Shown one piece after another: positions 3,780-19,823 of a DNA stretch of 19,823 nt (positions are counted from its first letter, which is position 1; the number at the start of each line of letters is the position of its first letter). Position numbers and translations under genes: made by a program. The notes under the pieces are model-generated. The model saw nothing but the letters and a program-made list of their open reading frames with translations. It was not told the DNA's origin and searched no databases. Source of the stretch: a virus (Duplodnaviria > Heunggongvirae > Uroviricota > Caudoviricetes). Where the stretch lies: IMG/VR virus record IMGVR_UViG_2585427795_000005; one strand, given 5' to 3'.

Positions 3780-3813
3780 ATAACTTCGTATAATGTATGC
3801 TATACGAAGTTAT
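3780..3813. other. loxP: loxP recombination site
   Basis: Exact ATAACTTCGTATA-ATGTATGC-TATACGAAGTTAT (13-bp inverted repeats around an 8-bp spacer). Confidence 0.98.
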
Positions 3814-3856
3814 TAGGTCCGAAGAGGAGTTTACGTCCAGCTGCGCACAAAAATCA

Positions 3857-3873
3857 AGAATTATTAGAGCAAT
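3857..3873 (-). promoter_or_regulatory. C1 operator in the immC region between loxP and coi
   Basis: Minus strand ATTGCTCTAATAATTCT (14/17). Confidence 0.65.
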
Positions 3874-3939: not shown

Positions 3940-3956
3940 ATTGCTCTAATAAATTA
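3940..3956 (+). promoter_or_regulatory. C1 operator in immC, overlapping a TTGACA -35-like hexamer
   Basis: Plus strand ATTGCTCTAATAAATTA (16/17); TTGACA at 3935..3940; divergent with the 3857..3873 site. Confidence 0.7.
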
Positions 3957-13649: not shown

Positions 13650-16600
13650 ATGACTCATCAAACACACACCATTGCTGAATCCAATAACTTTATCGTCCTT
13701 GATAAGTACATCAAAGCTGAGCAAACAAGCGACAGCTACCAGAGCGAATCGGACCTGGAACGTGAACTGATTCAGGACCTGCGGAATCAGGGTTATGAAT
13801 TTATTTCCGTAAAATCACAGTCGGCAATGCTGTCTAATGTTCGGGAACAGCTTCAGAGCCTCAATGGTGTGATGTTTAATGACAGCGAGTGGCGGCGCTT
13901 CACGGAGCAGTATCTGGACAACCCCAGCGATGGTATTCTGGATAAAACCCGTAAAATCCATATCGACTATATCTGCGACTTTATTTTTGACGACGGGCGA
14001 CTTGAGAACATCTATTTGATAGATAAAAAGAATCTCATGCGCAATAAGGTGCAGATTATCCAGCAGTTTGAACAGACGGGTTCTCATGCTAACCGTTATG
14101 ACGTCACGATCCTGGTTAATGGTTTACCGCTGGTGCAAATCGAACTAAAAAAACGCGGGGTGGCGATTCGTGAGGCTTTCAACCAGATACATCGTTACAG
14201 TAAAGAGAGTTTTAACAACGAAAATTCCCTGTTTAAGTATCTGCAACTGTTTGTCATTTCTAACGGCACCGATACCCGTTATTTTGCCAACACGACAAAG
14301 CGCGATAAAAACAGTTTTGACTTCACCATGAATTGGGCGAAATCAGACAATACGCTGATTAAAGACCTCAAAGACTTTACCGCTACCTTTTTCCAGAAAC
14401 ATACTCTGCTGAATGTTCTGGTGAACTACAGCGTTTTTGACAGTAGTCAGACGCTACTGGTGATGCGACCGTACCAGATTGCCGCCACCGAGCGCATTCT
14501 GTGGAAAATTAAGAGTTCCTTTACAGCGAAGAACTGGTCAAAACCGGAAAGCGGTGGGTATATCTGGCACACTACCGGTTCTGGTAAAACCCTCACCAGC
14601 TTTAAAGCCGCGCGTCTGGCAACAGAGCTGGACTTTATTGATAAAGTCTTCTTTGTGGTCGACAGGAAAGACCTCGATTACCAGACCATGAAGGAATATC
14701 AGCGTTTTTCGCCAGACAGCGTCAACGGCTCGGAAAATACCGCAGGCCTTAAACGAAATCTGGATAAGGACGATAACAAAATTATCGTCACTACTATTCA
14801 GAAACTCAATAACCTGATGAAAGCAGAAAGCGACCTGCCTGTATACAATCAGCAAGTGGTGTTTATATTTGATGAATGTCACCGCAGCCAGTTTGGAGAA
14901 GCGCAGAAAAACCTGAAGAAGAAATTCAAACGCTATTATCAGTTTGGTTTTACCGGCACCCCTATTTTCCCGGAAAATGCCTTAGGCTCAGAAACGACCG
15001 CCAGCGTATTTGGTCGTGAATTGCATTCGTATGTAATTACCGATGCGATTCGTGATGAAAAAGTGCTCAAATTCAAGGTGGACTACAACGATGTGCGGCC
15101 ACAGTTTAAGTCTTTAGAGACAGAAACTGACGAGAAAAAACTAAGTGCGGCTGAAAATCAGCAGGCGTTTCTTCATCCCATGCGTATACAGGAAATCACG
15201 CAATATATTCTGAATAATTTCCGCCAGAAAACCCACCGCACCTTCCCTGGCTCAAAAGGTTTTAATGCTATGTTGGCAGTGAGCAGCGTGGATGCTGCAA
15301 AAGCCTATTACGCGGCGTTTAAACGGTTACAAGAGGAAGCAGCTAATAAATCGGCTACCTATAAACCGCTGCGTGTTGCGACAATCTTCTCCTTTGCTGC
15401 CAATGAAGAACAAAATGCCATTGGTGAAATTTCCGATGAAACTTTTGATACCAGCGCAATGGACAGCAGTGCTAAAGAGTTTCTTGACGCTGCAATTCGT
15501 GAGTATAACAGCTATTTTAAAACTAACTTCAGCACCGACGGTAACGGTTTTCAGAACTACTATCGCGATTTAGCCCAACGGGTTAAAAATCAGGATATCG
15601 ATCTGTTAATTGTCGTGGGGATGTTTTTAACTGGCTTCGATGCTCCAACATTGAACACGCTATTCGTCGATAAAAACCTGCGTTTTCACGGCTTGATGCA
15701 GGCATTTTCCCGCACCAACCGTATTTATGATGCAACTAAAACCTTCGGTAATATCGTCACTTTCCGGGATCTGGAACGCTCAACTATTGATGCCATAACG
15801 CTGTTTGGTGACAAAAACACCAAAAATGTGGTTTTAGAAAAGAGTTATGCAGAGTATATGGAAGGCTTTACTGATGCTGCCACTGGTGAAGCTAAGCGCG
15901 GCTTTATGGCAGTAGTTTCAGAACTGGAACAACGGTTCCCTGACCCTGCCAGTATTGAAAGTGAAAAAGAGAAGAAAGACTTCGTTAAACTGTTTGGTGA
16001 ATACCTGCGTGCCGAGAACATCCTGCAAAACTATGATGAATTTGCCACGCTGAAAGCCCTGCAACAAATCGATCTTAGCGATCCTGTTGCAGTAGAAAAA
16101 TTCAAAGCAGAACATTATGTGGATGATGAAAAGCTCGCTGAATTGCAAACAATTCGTCTCCCTGCTGATCGCAAGATTCAGGATTATCGTTCTGCCTATA
16201 ACGATATTCGCGACTGGCAGCGCCGTGAGAAAGAAGCTGAGAAAAAAGAGAAATCAACCACTGACTGGGATGACGTAGTTTTTGAGGTCGATTTGCTGAA
16301 GTCTCAGGAAATAAACCTGGATTATATCCTTGGACTGATTTTCGAACACAACAGACAAAATAAAGGCAAGGGCGAAATGATCGAAGAGGTTAAACGCTTA
16401 ATTCGTTCAAGCCTAGGGAACCGTGCTAAAGAGGGCCTGGTGGTCGATTTTATTCAGCAAACGAACCTGGATGATTTACCGGACAAAGCCAGCATCATTG
16501 ACGCATTCTTTACGTTTGCTCAACGCGAACAGCAACGTGAAGCAGAAGCATTGATAAAAGAAGAAAATCTCAATGAAGATGCAGCAAAACGCTATATTCG

Positions 16601-16766
16601 CACGTCTTTAAAACGCGAATATGCCACAGAAAATGGCACAGAATTAAACGAAACATTACCAAAACTTAGTCCGTTGAATCCGCAATATAAAACGAAAAAA
16701 CAGGCAGTTTTCCAGAAAATCGTCTCGTTTATTGAGAAGTTTAAAGGCGTAGGCGGAAAAATATAG
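13650..16766 (+). CDS. hsdR: Type I R-M restriction subunit HsdR (type IC)
   Basis: 1038 aa; nuclease motif region (D...IELK), Walker A TGSGKT, DECH box; AAAGGA SD; separated from hsdS by a 121-bp gap consistent with its own promoter. Confidence 0.93.
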
Positions 16767-16785
16767 CCCAATTCGTGTTTTTCTT

Positions 16786-16813
16786 GCGGGTTCTTAATTA
16801 AACCCGCAAGAGA
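16786..16813. other. 10-bp-stem hairpin just downstream of hsdR
   Basis: CTTGCGGGTT-CTTAATTA-AACCCGCAAG, T-run on the 5' side only. A terminator role is uncertain. Confidence 0.3.
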
Positions 16814-16845
16814 CCGTGGGGTTTCAAATGGCTAATATACTCCCC

Positions 16846-16932
16846 TTACCCATGCGCGACGATGCCGCCAAAAGTGATAGAGAACAGCCAGAAATAGATC
16901 GCGGCCATAATGATTTTGAATGCCGTGTTCAT
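16846..16932 (-). CDS. Candidate small hydrophobic protein (28 aa, single predicted transmembrane helix)
   Basis: Hand-read ORF MNTAFKIIMAAIYFWLFSITFGGIVAHG, below the track's size cutoff; AGGAG SD 8 nt upstream; conserved CCAATCAATCA leader; C1 operator upstream at 17015..17031. Confidence 0.35.
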   Translation of the reverse strand: MNTAFKIIMAAIYFWLFSITFGGIVAHG

Positions 16933-16946
16933 ATTTTCAGCTCCTG

Positions 16947-16957
16947 TGATTGATTGG
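16947..16957 (-). repeat. Copy 3 of the recurring 11-mer (minus strand CCAATCAATCA-C-AGGAG-CTGAAAATATG)
   Basis: Exact 11-mer immediately upstream of the SD of the 28-aa ORF. Confidence 0.6.
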
Positions 16958-16959
16958 AT

Positions 16960-16990
16960 ACATGCCGCGCCTTGCGGCATGTTTTTATTT
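16960..16990 (+). terminator. Rho-independent terminator on the plus strand (9-bp stem, then TTTTTATTT)
   Basis: ACATGCCGC-GCCTT-GCGGCATGT followed by a T-run; lies in the 5' leader of the minus-strand small ORF and is convergent with it. Confidence 0.55.
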
Positions 16991-17014
16991 TCACTTTCCC
17001 TGTTTTAAAAATCA

Positions 17015-17031
17015 TGATTTATTAGAGCAAT
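17015..17031 (-). promoter_or_regulatory. C1 operator upstream of the 28-aa ORF
   Basis: Minus strand ATTGCTCTAATAAATCA (15/17), followed by TTTAAAAC; overlaps the stop codon of the upstream ORF. Confidence 0.65.
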
Positions 17032-17554: not shown

Positions 17555-17590
17555 CGAAAAAAATGCTGGTGGGCGCACTCCACCAGCATT
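17555..17590 (-). terminator. Intrinsic terminator on the minus strand between the 371-aa ORF and the HAD-like gene
   Basis: Minus strand AATGCTGGTGG-AGTGCGC-CCACCAGCATT followed by TTTTTTT. Confidence 0.5.
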
Positions 17591-17609: not shown

Positions 17610-18725
17610 TCAGCGGACGTAAATAGTGCCGCCGTTCTCTTTTTCCCATGCATCGCTACGTGCATAGCAAACATCGAGAAGTCTTCTTGCCGCTGTTTCC
17701 TCTAAACCCAATTCGACAACCAACTGCTCATGACGGCGGGTAACCACATCAAACAGAGTATGCAACCCTTTAGTTGCCAGATCATCAATGAATTCCGGTT
17801 CGAACGGCAGCTCTGCATCTGCCAACATAACCTCTTGCGCCCACTCAACTCGACGGACCAATTCCGGGCGGCGGCTTTCCATCTCTTTACAGATCAATTC
17901 ATGGAAGAACTCTACCCAACCTTCCGGCTGGAACTCGCGGAAAATGGCCAACGGCTGGAAGTTTGGCATCAACCATTCGTTGATTCGGATATCAATGGCA
18001 TAGCCCATGTCGCAGCAGAACTGATAAGCAAAGTCCAGCTTAGAAACGATATAAGGACGCTCGTTATTGAACTCTTTAGGCGATGAGATCCCATAAGCCA
18101 GGAGGCGCGGGAAGAAGGAGATTTGCCCTAACGTCGGATGAAGTTTGCTTGCAGGGAAACGGCGCTCAGTAATGCCATACATTTCCTTCTTGAGCGTCGC
18201 AAATTTGGCATTCTCATTAACCAGCGCGGTAACCTCTGCTTTTTTATTAGCAAATGCCACGCGCGCTTCGCTTGCATCTTTAATAGTTTTTTTGAGCTGT
18301 TGGTTAAGGTCGGCGACCTGCTTACGCAGTTCCTGTCGCTCGCTTTTAGCTTTGTTATAGCGTTTCTCAAGGTTAAAAGGATCAAGTTTCATGATCTCTT
18401 TATATTGAGATTTTAGCGTTGAAATCTGTGAGTTCCGCAGTTCAACCATCGCGGTCATTTCATTGAGTTTTGTTTCCAGCTCAATGCTTATACGTTCGGC
18501 ATTATCAGCACGCTGGTTGGCGTCATGCGTCGCATCGTCGATCGCGTCCTGTTGCTGGCGTTTCAAATGTTCAATTTGCAGCTGAAGCTCTTCAATTTCT
18601 TTACCCTTCAGACCGAGATCCAACTGCATATTTTCAGCTGCATCTACCAGGGAGTTATGGCTATCAGCTTCTGCGTTATAAACATCAATAAGCTGTGCGT
18701 GAAGCATCTCCGCTGACTGAACCAC
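17610..18725 (-). CDS. Hypothetical protein (371 aa): N-terminal coiled-coil region and an uncharacterised C-terminal domain
   Basis: Long ORF; N-terminal half rich in heptad-like E/K/Q/L segments. Start uncertain (GTG at 18725 or ATG at 18707, neither with a good SD). Confidence 0.6.
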   Translation of the reverse strand: MVQSAEMLHAQLIDVYNAEADSHNSLVDAAENMQLDLGLKGKEIEELQLQIEHLKRQQQDAIDDATHDANQRADNAERISIELETKLNEMTAMVELRNSQISTLKSQYKEIMKLDPFNLEKRYNKAKSERQELRKQVADLNQQLKKTIKDASEARVAFANKKAEVTALVNENAKFATLKKEMYGITERRFPASKLHPTLGQISFFPRLLAYGISSPKEFNNERPYIVSKLDFAYQFCCDMGYAIDIRINEWLMPNFQPLAIFREFQPEGWVEFFHELICKEMESRRPELVRRVEWAQEVMLADAELPFEPEFIDDLATKGLHTLFDVVTRRHEQLVVELGLEETAARRLLDVCYARSDAWEKENGGTIYVR

Positions 18726-18873
18726 ATTATCAAAAAAACGTGCTGTGAGGTCATCACAACTAACGCGGCGTTGCGCGGCCCGGATGTTCTGGATAATGGC
18801 CGGGATACCGGCATTCAGGACATCAGGGATAGATACATTTTCGATTGATTGCTTTTATGCTGAAGTGCTCATT

Positions 18874-19092
18874 TCAAAGTTCCGTATTAGCTTGTGCTTC
18901 GGTCATTTTTCCTAAGTATGAAGGAGGAAGGACTACGCAATTTGTATCCAGTCCCTCACCTATGGCAGCCTGTAAAATTCTGGCTAAGGTGAGTCTCTTG
19001 TTGCGATACCTGGTGATGACATGCCTGATACCGCCGGTCGGTGTAACAAAGGCGATCAGCCAGTAGTGATATTTCCGTCGGAATGGCCACAT
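18874..19092 (-). CDS. Hypothetical small protein (72 aa), first gene downstream of a paired C1 operator
   Basis: ATG preceded by AAGGTG; no alternative upstream start in frame. Confidence 0.35.
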   Translation of the reverse strand: MWPFRRKYHYWLIAFVTPTGGIRHVITRYRNKRLTLARILQAAIGEGLDTNCVVLPPSYLGKMTEAQANTEL

Positions 19093-19106
19093 AGTGCACC
19101 TTGTAA

Positions 19107-19123
19107 ATTGCTCTAATAAAAAA
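19107..19123 (+). promoter_or_regulatory. C1 operator
   Basis: Plus strand ATTGCTCTAATAAAAAA (14/17); 15 bp upstream of the 72-aa ORF start. Confidence 0.6.
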
Positions 19124-19147
19124 CGTGATGAGTGTACATCACGTTTT
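19120..19147. other. Perfect 11-bp inverted repeat with a 6-nt loop between the two operators
   Basis: AAAACGTGATG-AGTGTA-CATCACGTTTT. Confidence 0.5.
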
Positions 19148-19155
19148 AAAAATAT

Positions 19156-19172
19156 GGAATTATTAGAGCAAT
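19156..19172 (-). promoter_or_regulatory. C1 operator, divergent partner of 19107..19123
   Basis: Minus strand ATTGCTCTAATAATTCC (14/17), followed on the minus strand by TTTTTAAAAC as at 17015..17031. Confidence 0.65.
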
Positions 19173-19383
19173 ATTATTCTGATTCTTGCTCAAAAAACGC
19201 GCTAATGAGAGGAAGCCAATCCTCTGACACTTCACGCGGTCGCGGTTTGCCATGGAAGAAGATTATTCGGCAGTCTTTTGGTAATGCCCCATTCCCCCTG
19301 GAGTAGCGCGCACTTGCATATTTCGAACCAGGTTCCACAACATCGGCCTTGTAACTTACAAACCATCCCGGATACAGATCCTG

Positions 19384-19823
19384 GGTAATGACTCCAACTT
19401 ATTGATAGTGTTTTATGTTCAGATAATGCCCGATGACTTTGTCATGCAGCTCCACCGATTTTGAGAACGACAGCGACTTCCGTCCCAGCCGTGCCAGGTG
19501 CTGCCTCAGATTCAGGTTATGCCGCTCAATTCGCTGCGTATATCGCTTGCTGATTACGTGCAGCTTTCCCTTCAGGCGGGATTCATACAGCGGCCAGCCA
19601 TCCGTCATCCATATCACCACGTCAAAGGGTGACAGCAGGCTCATAAGACGCCCCAGCGTCGCCATAGTGCGTTCACCGAATACGTGCGCAACAACCGTCT
19701 TCCGGAGCCTGTCATACGCGTAAAACAGCCAGCGCTGGCGCGATTTAGCCCCGACGTATCCCCACTGTTCGTCCATTTCCGCGCAGACGATGACGTCACT
19801 GCCCGGCTGTATGCGCGAGGTTA
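19384..19823 (-). mobile_element. IS1 insertion sequence, second partial copy (continues right of the window), a divergent isoform
   Basis: Terminal repeat GGTAATGACTCCAACTTATTGATAGTG from 19384; InsB ORF on the minus strand; same orientation as the left copy. Confidence 0.93.
19399..19823 (-). CDS. insB: IS1 InsB (transposase catalytic part), 5' end outside the window
   Basis: Translation ...[125 protein letters not shown]. Confidence 0.9.

Follow-up and report, generated by a model that had tools for sequence, protein, structure and literature searches.

The window, the whole 19,823-nucleotide stretch of DNA analyzed here, is, judged by its sequence, a P1-like phage-plasmid. In sequence comparison, P1, P7, RCS47, SJ46, and others share 97% identity with it over 18600-19383, and the 66 bp at 19107-19172 that form the subject of this report are 100% identical to P1 and P7. 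The P1 plus strand corresponds to the minus strand of the window, which is the sense strand from pmgQ to pmgR, and the genes flanking the 66-bp element (pmgQ, pmgR, and pmgS) all lie on it. Upstream is a 3' remnant of pmgQ (hdmD; 19174-19383, minus strand), cut by an IS1 element that begins at 19384; P1-like resistance phage-plasmids commonly carry insertions in this region, which in the window holds IS1. Downstream, with the element 27 nt upstream of its start codon, is pmgR (18874-19092, minus strand; 72 aa), the gene under the element's control, preceded by the Shine-Dalgarno sequence AAGGTG at approximately 19103-19098. pmgR is essential for P1, and its deletion leaves unjoined heads and tails (PMC9024508). 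The downstream pmgS contains a nonsense codon in the window, and a canonical terminator at 17590-17562 on the minus strand, between pmgS and pap, closes the pmgR-pmgS unit; this terminator is missing from the P1 GenBank record.

The element is the Op86a/Op86b control region of the pmgR-pmgS operon, transcribed on the minus strand. Its two ends were matched against the P1 C1 consensus ATTGCTCTAATAAATTT, a 17-bp asymmetric site with the conserved core ATTGCTCTAATA. Op86b (OpmgRb; ATTGCTCTAATAAAAAA), at 19107-19123 on the plus strand, and Op86a (OpmgRa; ATTGCTCTAATAATTCC), at 19156-19172 on the minus strand, each agree with the consensus at 14 of 17 positions (three mismatches) with a perfect 13-nt core, and their arms form a perfect 13-nt inverted repeat (19107-19119/19160-19172). 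Matches of this quality occur nine times in the window against 0.17 expected from dinucleotide-preserving shuffles. The first-pass annotation had read two C1 operators in opposite orientation here, and these are exactly the sites, identical in sequence, annotated in the P1 and P7 records: the P1 record (AF234172) lists both as protein_bind features for "phage repressor C1" under the names OpmgRa and OpmgRb (formerly Op86a/b), controlling pmgR-pmgS, and in the P7 record (AF503408) the same two protein_bind features bear the names Op(sht[a]) and Op(sht[b]), of the sht operon. We are thus almost certain, from sequence identity, that the two sites are the P1 Op86a/b pair and predict that both bind C1. 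The pair is already known from those records, and the comparison with documented P1 operator pairs that had been proposed as a check leads directly to OpmgRa/OpmgRb. GenBank classes both operators as monovalent. The gap between them, previously given as 33 bp, measures 32 bp (19124-19155), with a centre-to-centre distance of 49 bp.

Between the operators, a repeat finder confirmed the perfect 11-bp palindrome described earlier, with arms AAAACGTGATG and CATCACGTTTT at 19120-19130 and 19137-19147 around the 6-nt spacer AGTGTA; its partial overlap with the left operator also held and amounts to 4 bp (19120-19123). Neither the P1 nor the P7 GenBank record marks the palindrome as a feature. A count of inverted repeats with no mismatch, arms no shorter than 11 bp, and loops of 3-10 nt gave four loci in the window, compared with 0.07 on average over 200 dinucleotide shuffles; besides this palindrome they are loxP (3781-3814) and two terminator-like sites. 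A chance origin of the operators and the palindrome is ruled out by these shuffle expectations (0.17 and 0.07).

Read on the minus strand, the palindrome would give an RNA hairpin at 19120-19147, which we propose as the stem-loop of a Rho-independent terminator, with AAAACGTGATG as the 5' arm (19147-19137), TACACT as the loop (19136-19131), and CATCACGTTTT as the 3' arm (19130-19120). The 11-bp hairpin has a predicted energy of -13.4 kcal/mol and its 7-bp core (CGUGAUG/CAUCACG) one of -8.5 kcal/mol; four of the seven core pairs are G-C, and four A-U pairs can lengthen the stem. The fold energy of the 81-nt context is -26.9 kcal/mol (z = -8.4). The distal A6 of Op86b reads as a T6 (U6) tract on this strand (19118-19123), followed by ATT, and stands directly 3' of the 7-bp core as the proposed termination point. 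No Rfam family reached its gathering threshold anywhere in the window, and around the site, with E values up to 10, the search returned chance matches only (hveRNA and LhrC, far under threshold).

To follow the element across relatives, we collected homologous intergenic regions from approximately 120 IMG/VR contigs and two genome contigs by scanning for the pattern of both operator cores, and further regions from Cronobacter phage JK004 and from contigs encoding PmgR homologs at 72-84% identity; loci with a 100% identical PmgR, recovered in a profile search with the PmgR alignment, were uninformative for covariation. The collection holds 34 distinct variants of a 62-64-nt core, 25 of which aligned without gaps (alignment A3). 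All homologs keep the same order on the sense strand: the pmgQ TAA, Op86a, approximately 12 AT-rich nt, the hairpin, a run of five to seven T's, the Shine-Dalgarno sequence, and the pmgR ATG. The pmgQ stop precedes Op86a by 2 nt in all lineages, the hairpin starts approximately 20 nt 3' of that stop, and the T-run is the distal end of Op86b in all homologs. The distance between operators is likewise constant at 63 nt from TTGCTC to its mirror in every lineage, with exceptions of +/-1 nt only, in homopolymer runs. The operators also co-vary between lineages at columns 4 and 61 (CG in 18, UA in 6, and UG in 1 of the 25 variants).

Within this fixed frame the palindrome changes in sequence and keeps its pairing. 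Where P1 has arms AAAACGTGATG/CATCACGTTTT, variants L063 and L211 have AAAACATGGTG/CACCATGTTTT, variant L225 has AAGCGTGGTG/CACCACGCTT, and JK004 has GAAGCATGGTG/CGCCATGTTTT, all with complementarity kept. Nine of the 11 pair positions vary in A3, and standard pairs fill 95.3% of its cells versus 36-71% with the partner column shifted. Double-sided changes occur at three of the 11 pairs: G-C to A-U, A-U to G-C, and A-U to G-C by way of G·U. Read as sense RNA (minus strand), the cells comprise 232 Watson-Crick, 30 G·U, and 13 mismatched pairs, and read as antisense RNA (plus strand) they comprise 232 Watson-Crick, 5 G·U, and 38 mismatched pairs, though the variants are related and these cells are not independent events. 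Counted by distinct pair positions, the wobble asymmetry is approximately 9 versus 3-4, which alone is non-significant.

Folding gives the same direction. Among the 34 variants folded individually, the sense hairpin was the more stable in 16, the antisense in 4, and the two were equal in 14; all deeply diverged lineages favored the sense strand, by 4-8 kcal/mol, and changes favoring the antisense strand were seen in L004, L091, L074, and L118. RNAalifold predicted the inner hairpin from the sense alignment (-15.76 kcal/mol), and from the antisense alignment (-4.96 kcal/mol) it predicted the operator arms only, with no inner hairpin. In variant L218 the hairpin and T-run are kept in a shifted register, and a simple terminator scan classes this homolog as terminator-like. 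By these patterns of substitution, what is conserved of the palindrome is its structure, and on the sense strand alone. Pairing that is kept amid sequence drift, G·U pairs on one strand, and the register shift in L218 are together the signature of an RNA structure and not of a sequence-specific dimer site.

A Rho-independent terminator on the sense strand is probably what this structure is, as read from its sequence features. A stem-loop is followed by a U-tract on the transcribed strand, 3' of the end of pmgQ and in sense orientation, and the 7-bp core with its tail has a d'Aubenton-Carafa-type score of +10.7. The T-run is T5-T7 in all homologs, and at columns 50-54 of A3 it is T in 25 of 25 variants, whereas the equivalent positions of Op86a vary (TTCC, TTTC, TTTT, or ATTT). 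Because five T positions are invariant where their counterparts in the other operator are not, the alignment suggests that the run is under constraint beyond C1 binding. The simple terminator scan passed over the window copy, since it extended the stem through four of the T's and left the tail with too few. The core is short, with four G-C pairs in seven and -8.5 kcal/mol, so termination here may be partial. The P1 record has no terminator feature at the Op86 site; since the pmgS-pap terminator is unannotated too, this absence carries little weight. Looking on the plus strand for a promoter or terminator, we found nothing plausible: there is no plus-strand gene, the antisense hairpin lacks conservation, and no T-run comes after it. 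A DNA cruciform or hairpin promoter was also considered and is disfavored, as the one-sided wobbles would put A·C mismatches into one of the two DNA hairpins.

The loop of the hairpin has its own pattern of conservation. Its variants are TACACT, TACGCT, TATCAT, and TATTAT, with T36, A37, and T41 of A3 invariant and the middle three positions variable; invariant ends around a variable middle are the conservation pattern of a -10 hexamer. We consider it somewhat better than an even chance, on alignment and position weight matrix (PWM) evidence, that the loop (TACACT in the window, 19131-19136, minus strand) serves as the -10 of the pmgR promoter. The hexamer has A at -11 and T at -7. A weak candidate -35 lies 16-17 nt upstream at 19153-19159 on the minus strand, overlapping the final 3-4 bp of Op86a; its sequence in P1 and the window, TTCCAT/TCCATA, matches the consensus at 2-3 of 6 positions, relatives have TTTACT there, and T14 is invariant and A17 nearly so in A3. 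The distance from the start of Op86a to the start of the loop -10 is 36 nt. A promoter with the loop as -10 was the top PWM match in 10 of 10 lineages tested, relatives with TTTACT-16-TATTAT match 9 of 12 consensus positions, and a promoter scan found TTTACT-16-TATTAT or the TATCAT form in variants L222, L213, and L218. In the window, that scan found neither the loop promoter nor the one annotated in GenBank. With the loop as -10, transcription would start near G19124, giving a pmgR transcript without either hairpin arm, and Op86b would cover approximately +2 to +18.

Taken together, we favor a model, at a probability of roughly 0.6, in which the element combines a terminator hairpin, a pmgR promoter nested in it with its -10 in the loop, and control of that promoter from Op86a and Op86b. 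The palindrome would be transcribed within read-through RNA from the upstream pmgN-pmgQ operon (in the window, the IS1/pmgQ remnant); this RNA would fold into a hairpin of 7-11 bp followed by U6, and the upstream transcripts would end there. With upstream transcripts terminated, pmgR-pmgS expression would rest only on the C1-controlled promoter. That promoter would be nested in the same DNA, with its -35 over the last 3-4 bp of Op86a and its -10 (TAnnnT) in the loop at 19136-19131, and with a start near G19124 the pmgR transcripts would lie wholly 3' of the hairpin and so not be terminated by it. Repressor bound at Op86a would block the -35, and at Op86b it would cover the start site. That the operators face each other at a fixed spacing would then follow from their bracketing one core promoter, with looping unneeded. 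More tentatively, and at somewhat less than even odds, the element may be a three-in-one composite kept throughout P1-like phage-plasmids, in which a terminator supplies the next -10 from its loop and its U-tract is the distal half of an operator. If that is true, the GenBank PpmgR hexamers are wrong, and a start at G followed by U6 could add UTP-sensitive reiterative transcription, as at codBA and upp.

Published expression data bear on the promoter. In RNA-seq of P1vir infection at 10 min, log fold changes (wild type/dksA host) were 7.39/6.63 for pmgO, 6.99/6.52 for pmgP, 6.95/6.09 for ppp, and 7.05/6.23 for pmgQ, and then 9.02/9.00 for pmgR, 9.99/9.09 for pmgS, 8.45/7.78 for pap, and 9.72/9.05 for pmgT (PMC8201110 Table S1). 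The step from pmgQ to pmgR is approximately 2 to 2.8 log2 units in the two hosts (PMC8201110 Table S1), and this rise reveals promoter activity in the pmgQ-pmgR interval at an early stage of infection; RNA-seq does not identify the hexamers used. These values are per-gene log fold changes rather than coverage, and those at 30 min speak neither for nor against termination. At 10 min the values fall from pmgS to pap, as the terminator at 17590-17562 would lead one to expect. In CRISPRi, pmgQ knockdown had no effect despite the essential pmgR lying downstream, which fits an independent pmgR promoter, but pmgR knockdown also had none (PMC10695390), so these data carry no weight.

Four other accounts of the element have to be weighed against this model, two of which place the pmgR promoter elsewhere. 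The P1 record marks a "predicted sigma 70 promoter PpmgR" with its -35 (TTGCTC, 19166-19171, minus strand) inside Op86a and its -10 (TAAAAC, 19143-19148, minus strand) in the 5' arm and A-tract of the hairpin. Were that promoter the real one (-35 at 19171-19166, -10 at 19148-19143), transcription would start in the loop at approximately 19136 and the palindrome would have no promoter role. TTGCTC-17-TAAAAC agrees with the consensus at 8 of 12 positions in both P1 and the window and ranks third among the PWM matches in P1, and the same ATTGCTC...TTTTTAAAAC arrangement follows Op88; with the proposed -35 so poor in P1 and the window, this promoter is still a live alternative for P1. Its -10, however, lacks the critical final T, with an invariant C at column 29 (25 of 25 variants), and the hexamer (A3 columns 24-29) is not conserved: relatives have TGAAGC, TAAAGC, TGAGGC, TTAAGC, or TGCGGC, with G at the second position in 8 of 25 variants. 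In the TGAAGC, TGAGGC, and TGCGGC lineages the annotated promoter falls to approximately 5 of 12 consensus positions, and there TTTACT-16-TATTAT reaches 9 of 12. It also leaves the TAnnnT conservation of the loop unexplained, and we regard it as unlikely. Slightly less likely still is a pmgR mRNA that starts at a promoter upstream of 19147 and so carries the hairpin as a leader or attenuator, acting by premature termination or stabilization. A sense-strand RNA structure with a U-tract, 27 nt upstream of the pmgR start codon, would also fit such a role. Yet the PWM scan found no conserved promoter-like site upstream of the hairpin in the lineages tested, where AT-rich hexamers occur only inside Op86a or in the coding end of pmgQ; an unconditional strong U6 terminator before an essential gene would need an antitermination factor; and early pmgR expression is above that of pmgQ. 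The first-pass annotation had offered a leader hairpin as one possibility, and this is half borne out: an RNA hairpin is what the alignment supports, but from both candidate promoters transcription would start inside or after it, which would place it in upstream read-through transcripts and not in a pmgR leader.

The remaining two accounts turn on protein binding. The suggestion that the palindrome is the site of a dimeric DNA-binding protein (a second regulator, corepressor, or antirepressor) draws on a perfect 11-bp dyad centred between two operators, and symmetric changes in both half-sites would also look compensatory. Protein sites conserve sequence, though, and here nine of 11 pair positions vary, many of the changes are one-sided, giving G·U in the sense strand but A·C in the other so that the DNA dyad symmetry is broken, and L218 shifts the register of the dyad. 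Nor does the palindrome match the annotated Lpa -22 boxes: by eye we saw no convincing match to the P1 late-promoter box, AAGTTACTT or ATGTGACTT, and the closest stretch, ATGTACACT, agrees at 6 of 9 positions when these two reference boxes are compared, with its loop part changing in relatives. Bof/Lxc and Coi, moreover, act on the C1 protein and not on DNA; Bof/Lxc, the known C1 corepressor, works by way of C1 and requires no separate DNA site. A second protein's site, as proposed earlier, is not supported, given the drift with pairing kept, and we consider it very improbable. We also doubt that repressor bound at Op86a touches that at Op86b or loops out the 32-bp spacer, as the earlier comparison with looping or cooperative immC pairs would suggest, with the palindrome mainly setting spacing or flexibility. 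The constant 63-nt spacing, varying by +/-1 nt in homopolymer runs, and the co-variation of the two sites at columns 4 and 61 would agree with cooperative operators, but promoter spacing and the hairpin fully explain the former, and the latter is expected if both sites track the same C1 specificity. Both sites are monovalent in GenBank, and for a protein-mediated loop 49 bp centre-to-centre is a very small distance. C1 cooperativity or looping would nonetheless be compatible with the preferred model of a terminator hairpin with a promoter nested in it.

Overall, the Op86 element is ordinary, and what is offered here is a small refinement of its annotation. The operator pair itself adds nothing new, being annotated in AF234172 and AF503408. 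Apparently new to the annotation are an ordinary, probable terminator at the palindrome, which would separate the pmgN-pmgQ and pmgR-pmgS units, and a probable move of the PpmgR -10 into its loop. A different -10 for PpmgR would matter for deleting, recoding, or inserting cargo in this region, and a terminator, a promoter, and two operators in 66 bp would make a neat example of tight packing.

Set beside known systems, the element is the same as P1 OpmgRa/OpmgRb and P7 Op(sht[a])/Op(sht[b]) in sequence, in orientation, and in position between pmgQ (hdmD) and pmgR (shtA). Nothing differs inside it; only the flanks of the window differ, with pmgQ cut by IS1 and a nonsense codon in pmgS. Bivalent P1 C1 operators such as Oc1ab (formerly Op99a/b; 94166-94193) likewise set two opposed C1 sites on one promoter, but their 17-mers overlap within approximately 28 bp, whereas the Op86 sites are 32 bp apart and annotated as monovalent, and a reading of the pair as a bivalent overlapping operator was rejected on those grounds. 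The C1-controlled lpa promoter of P1 (Olpa/Plpa, formerly Op94/P94), entered in GenBank as a sigma-70 promoter with no "predicted" attached, has an operator that points toward the promoter, as Op86a would with the loop as -10. There the -35 covers the operator's final 3 bp, and after a 16-nt spacer comes the -10, TATTAT, which starts 36 nt from the operator start, the same geometry as proposed for Op86a; unlike the Op86 element, Plpa has one operator, no inverted repeat around its -10, and no second operator at +2. Enterobacterial and phage intrinsic terminators similarly consist of a stem-loop and then a U-tract, with a 5' A-tract, shortly after a stop codon, and their structure is likewise kept through compensatory and wobble changes. 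Unlike the usual members of that class, the Op86 hairpin has a short, moderately G+C-rich core and sits inside a promoter-operator region, and specific to it are a U-tract that is part of a repressor operator and a loop that resembles a -10 hexamer.

The two C1 repressor operators that precede pmgR, Op86a and Op86b, vary jointly among lineages in an ungapped alignment of 25 distinct variants of this region from P1-like relatives (columns 4-5 and 60-61, corresponding to window positions 19168-19167 and 19112-19111). Most carry TTGCTC together with GAGCAA, and contigs resembling Cronobacter phage JK004 or of Salmonella-like type carry TTGTTC or TTGTAC with GAACAA. Joint change is as expected if both sites follow a diverged C1 specificity, and such co-variation could be used for predicting immunity groups.

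A further operator, Op88/OpmgT (17031-17015), is followed by sequence nearly identical to that found 3' of Op86a (ATTGCTCTAATAAATCATGATTTTTAAAAC at 16996-17031 vs ATTGCTCTAATAATTCCATATTTTTAAAAC at 19137-19172, both on the - strand), with TAAAAC as the predicted -10 in GenBank for both regions. Such similarity suggests a duplication relating the two operator regions. Beyond Op88/OpmgT, P1 runs into pmgT, whereas the window diverges (16780-17031) and has three features in place of that continuation: a GC-rich hairpin lacking a T-run (~16960-16982), a 28-aa ORF and, converging on it from the + strand, an ORF of 1038 aa (13650-16766). The two converging reading frames are separated by an inverted repeat with perfect 11-bp arms at 16782. 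An HsdR-family type I restriction enzyme is named among plasmid matches over the whole window, and the 1038-aa ORF may encode this enzyme.

On the other side of Op86a, pmgQ (hdmD) is cut by an IS1 copy (19384-19823 in the window), whose terminal repeat GGTAATGACTCCAACTTATTGATAGTG marks its beginning at 19384 and whose insB ORF lies on the - strand (19776-19399); only the last ~70 codons of pmgQ are left (19383-19174). Given this IS1 orientation, transcription from IS1 runs toward the hairpin between Op86a and Op86b.

The pmgS coding region carries a nonsense codon at position 6 (18855-18857, - strand; TAA in the window vs CAA in P1), and the longest ORF (18725-17610) is therefore shortened from 420 to 371 aa, using an internal GTG start. 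Apart from this codon, pmgS differs from P1 at only 10 other nucleotides. Within its 5' part, consensus matches alone mark a terminator-like hairpin with a T7 run (GTTGTGATGACCTCACAGC then ACGTTTTTTT; 18742-18760, - strand) and an overlapping promoter-like site (18754-18726). In the gap that separates the end of pmgS from the start of pap, a terminator scan detected a canonical intrinsic terminator on the - strand (AATGCTGGTGG-AGTGCGC-CCACCAGCATT then TTTTT; 17562-17590, T-run to ~17555), which carries no annotation in the P1 GenBank record. In published RNA-seq of P1vir infection (PMC8201110 Table S1), the 10-min signal falls from pmgS to pap, consistent with a terminator at 17562-17590.

Elsewhere in the window, loxP (ATAACTTCGTATA-ATGTATGC-TATACGAAGTTAT; 3781-3814) is followed by C1 operator matches at 3857-3873 (- strand) and 3940-3956 (+ strand); the window therefore crosses the lox junction present when the plasmid is circular, and the two matches are probably the immC/cre operators of P1 (Op99 series).
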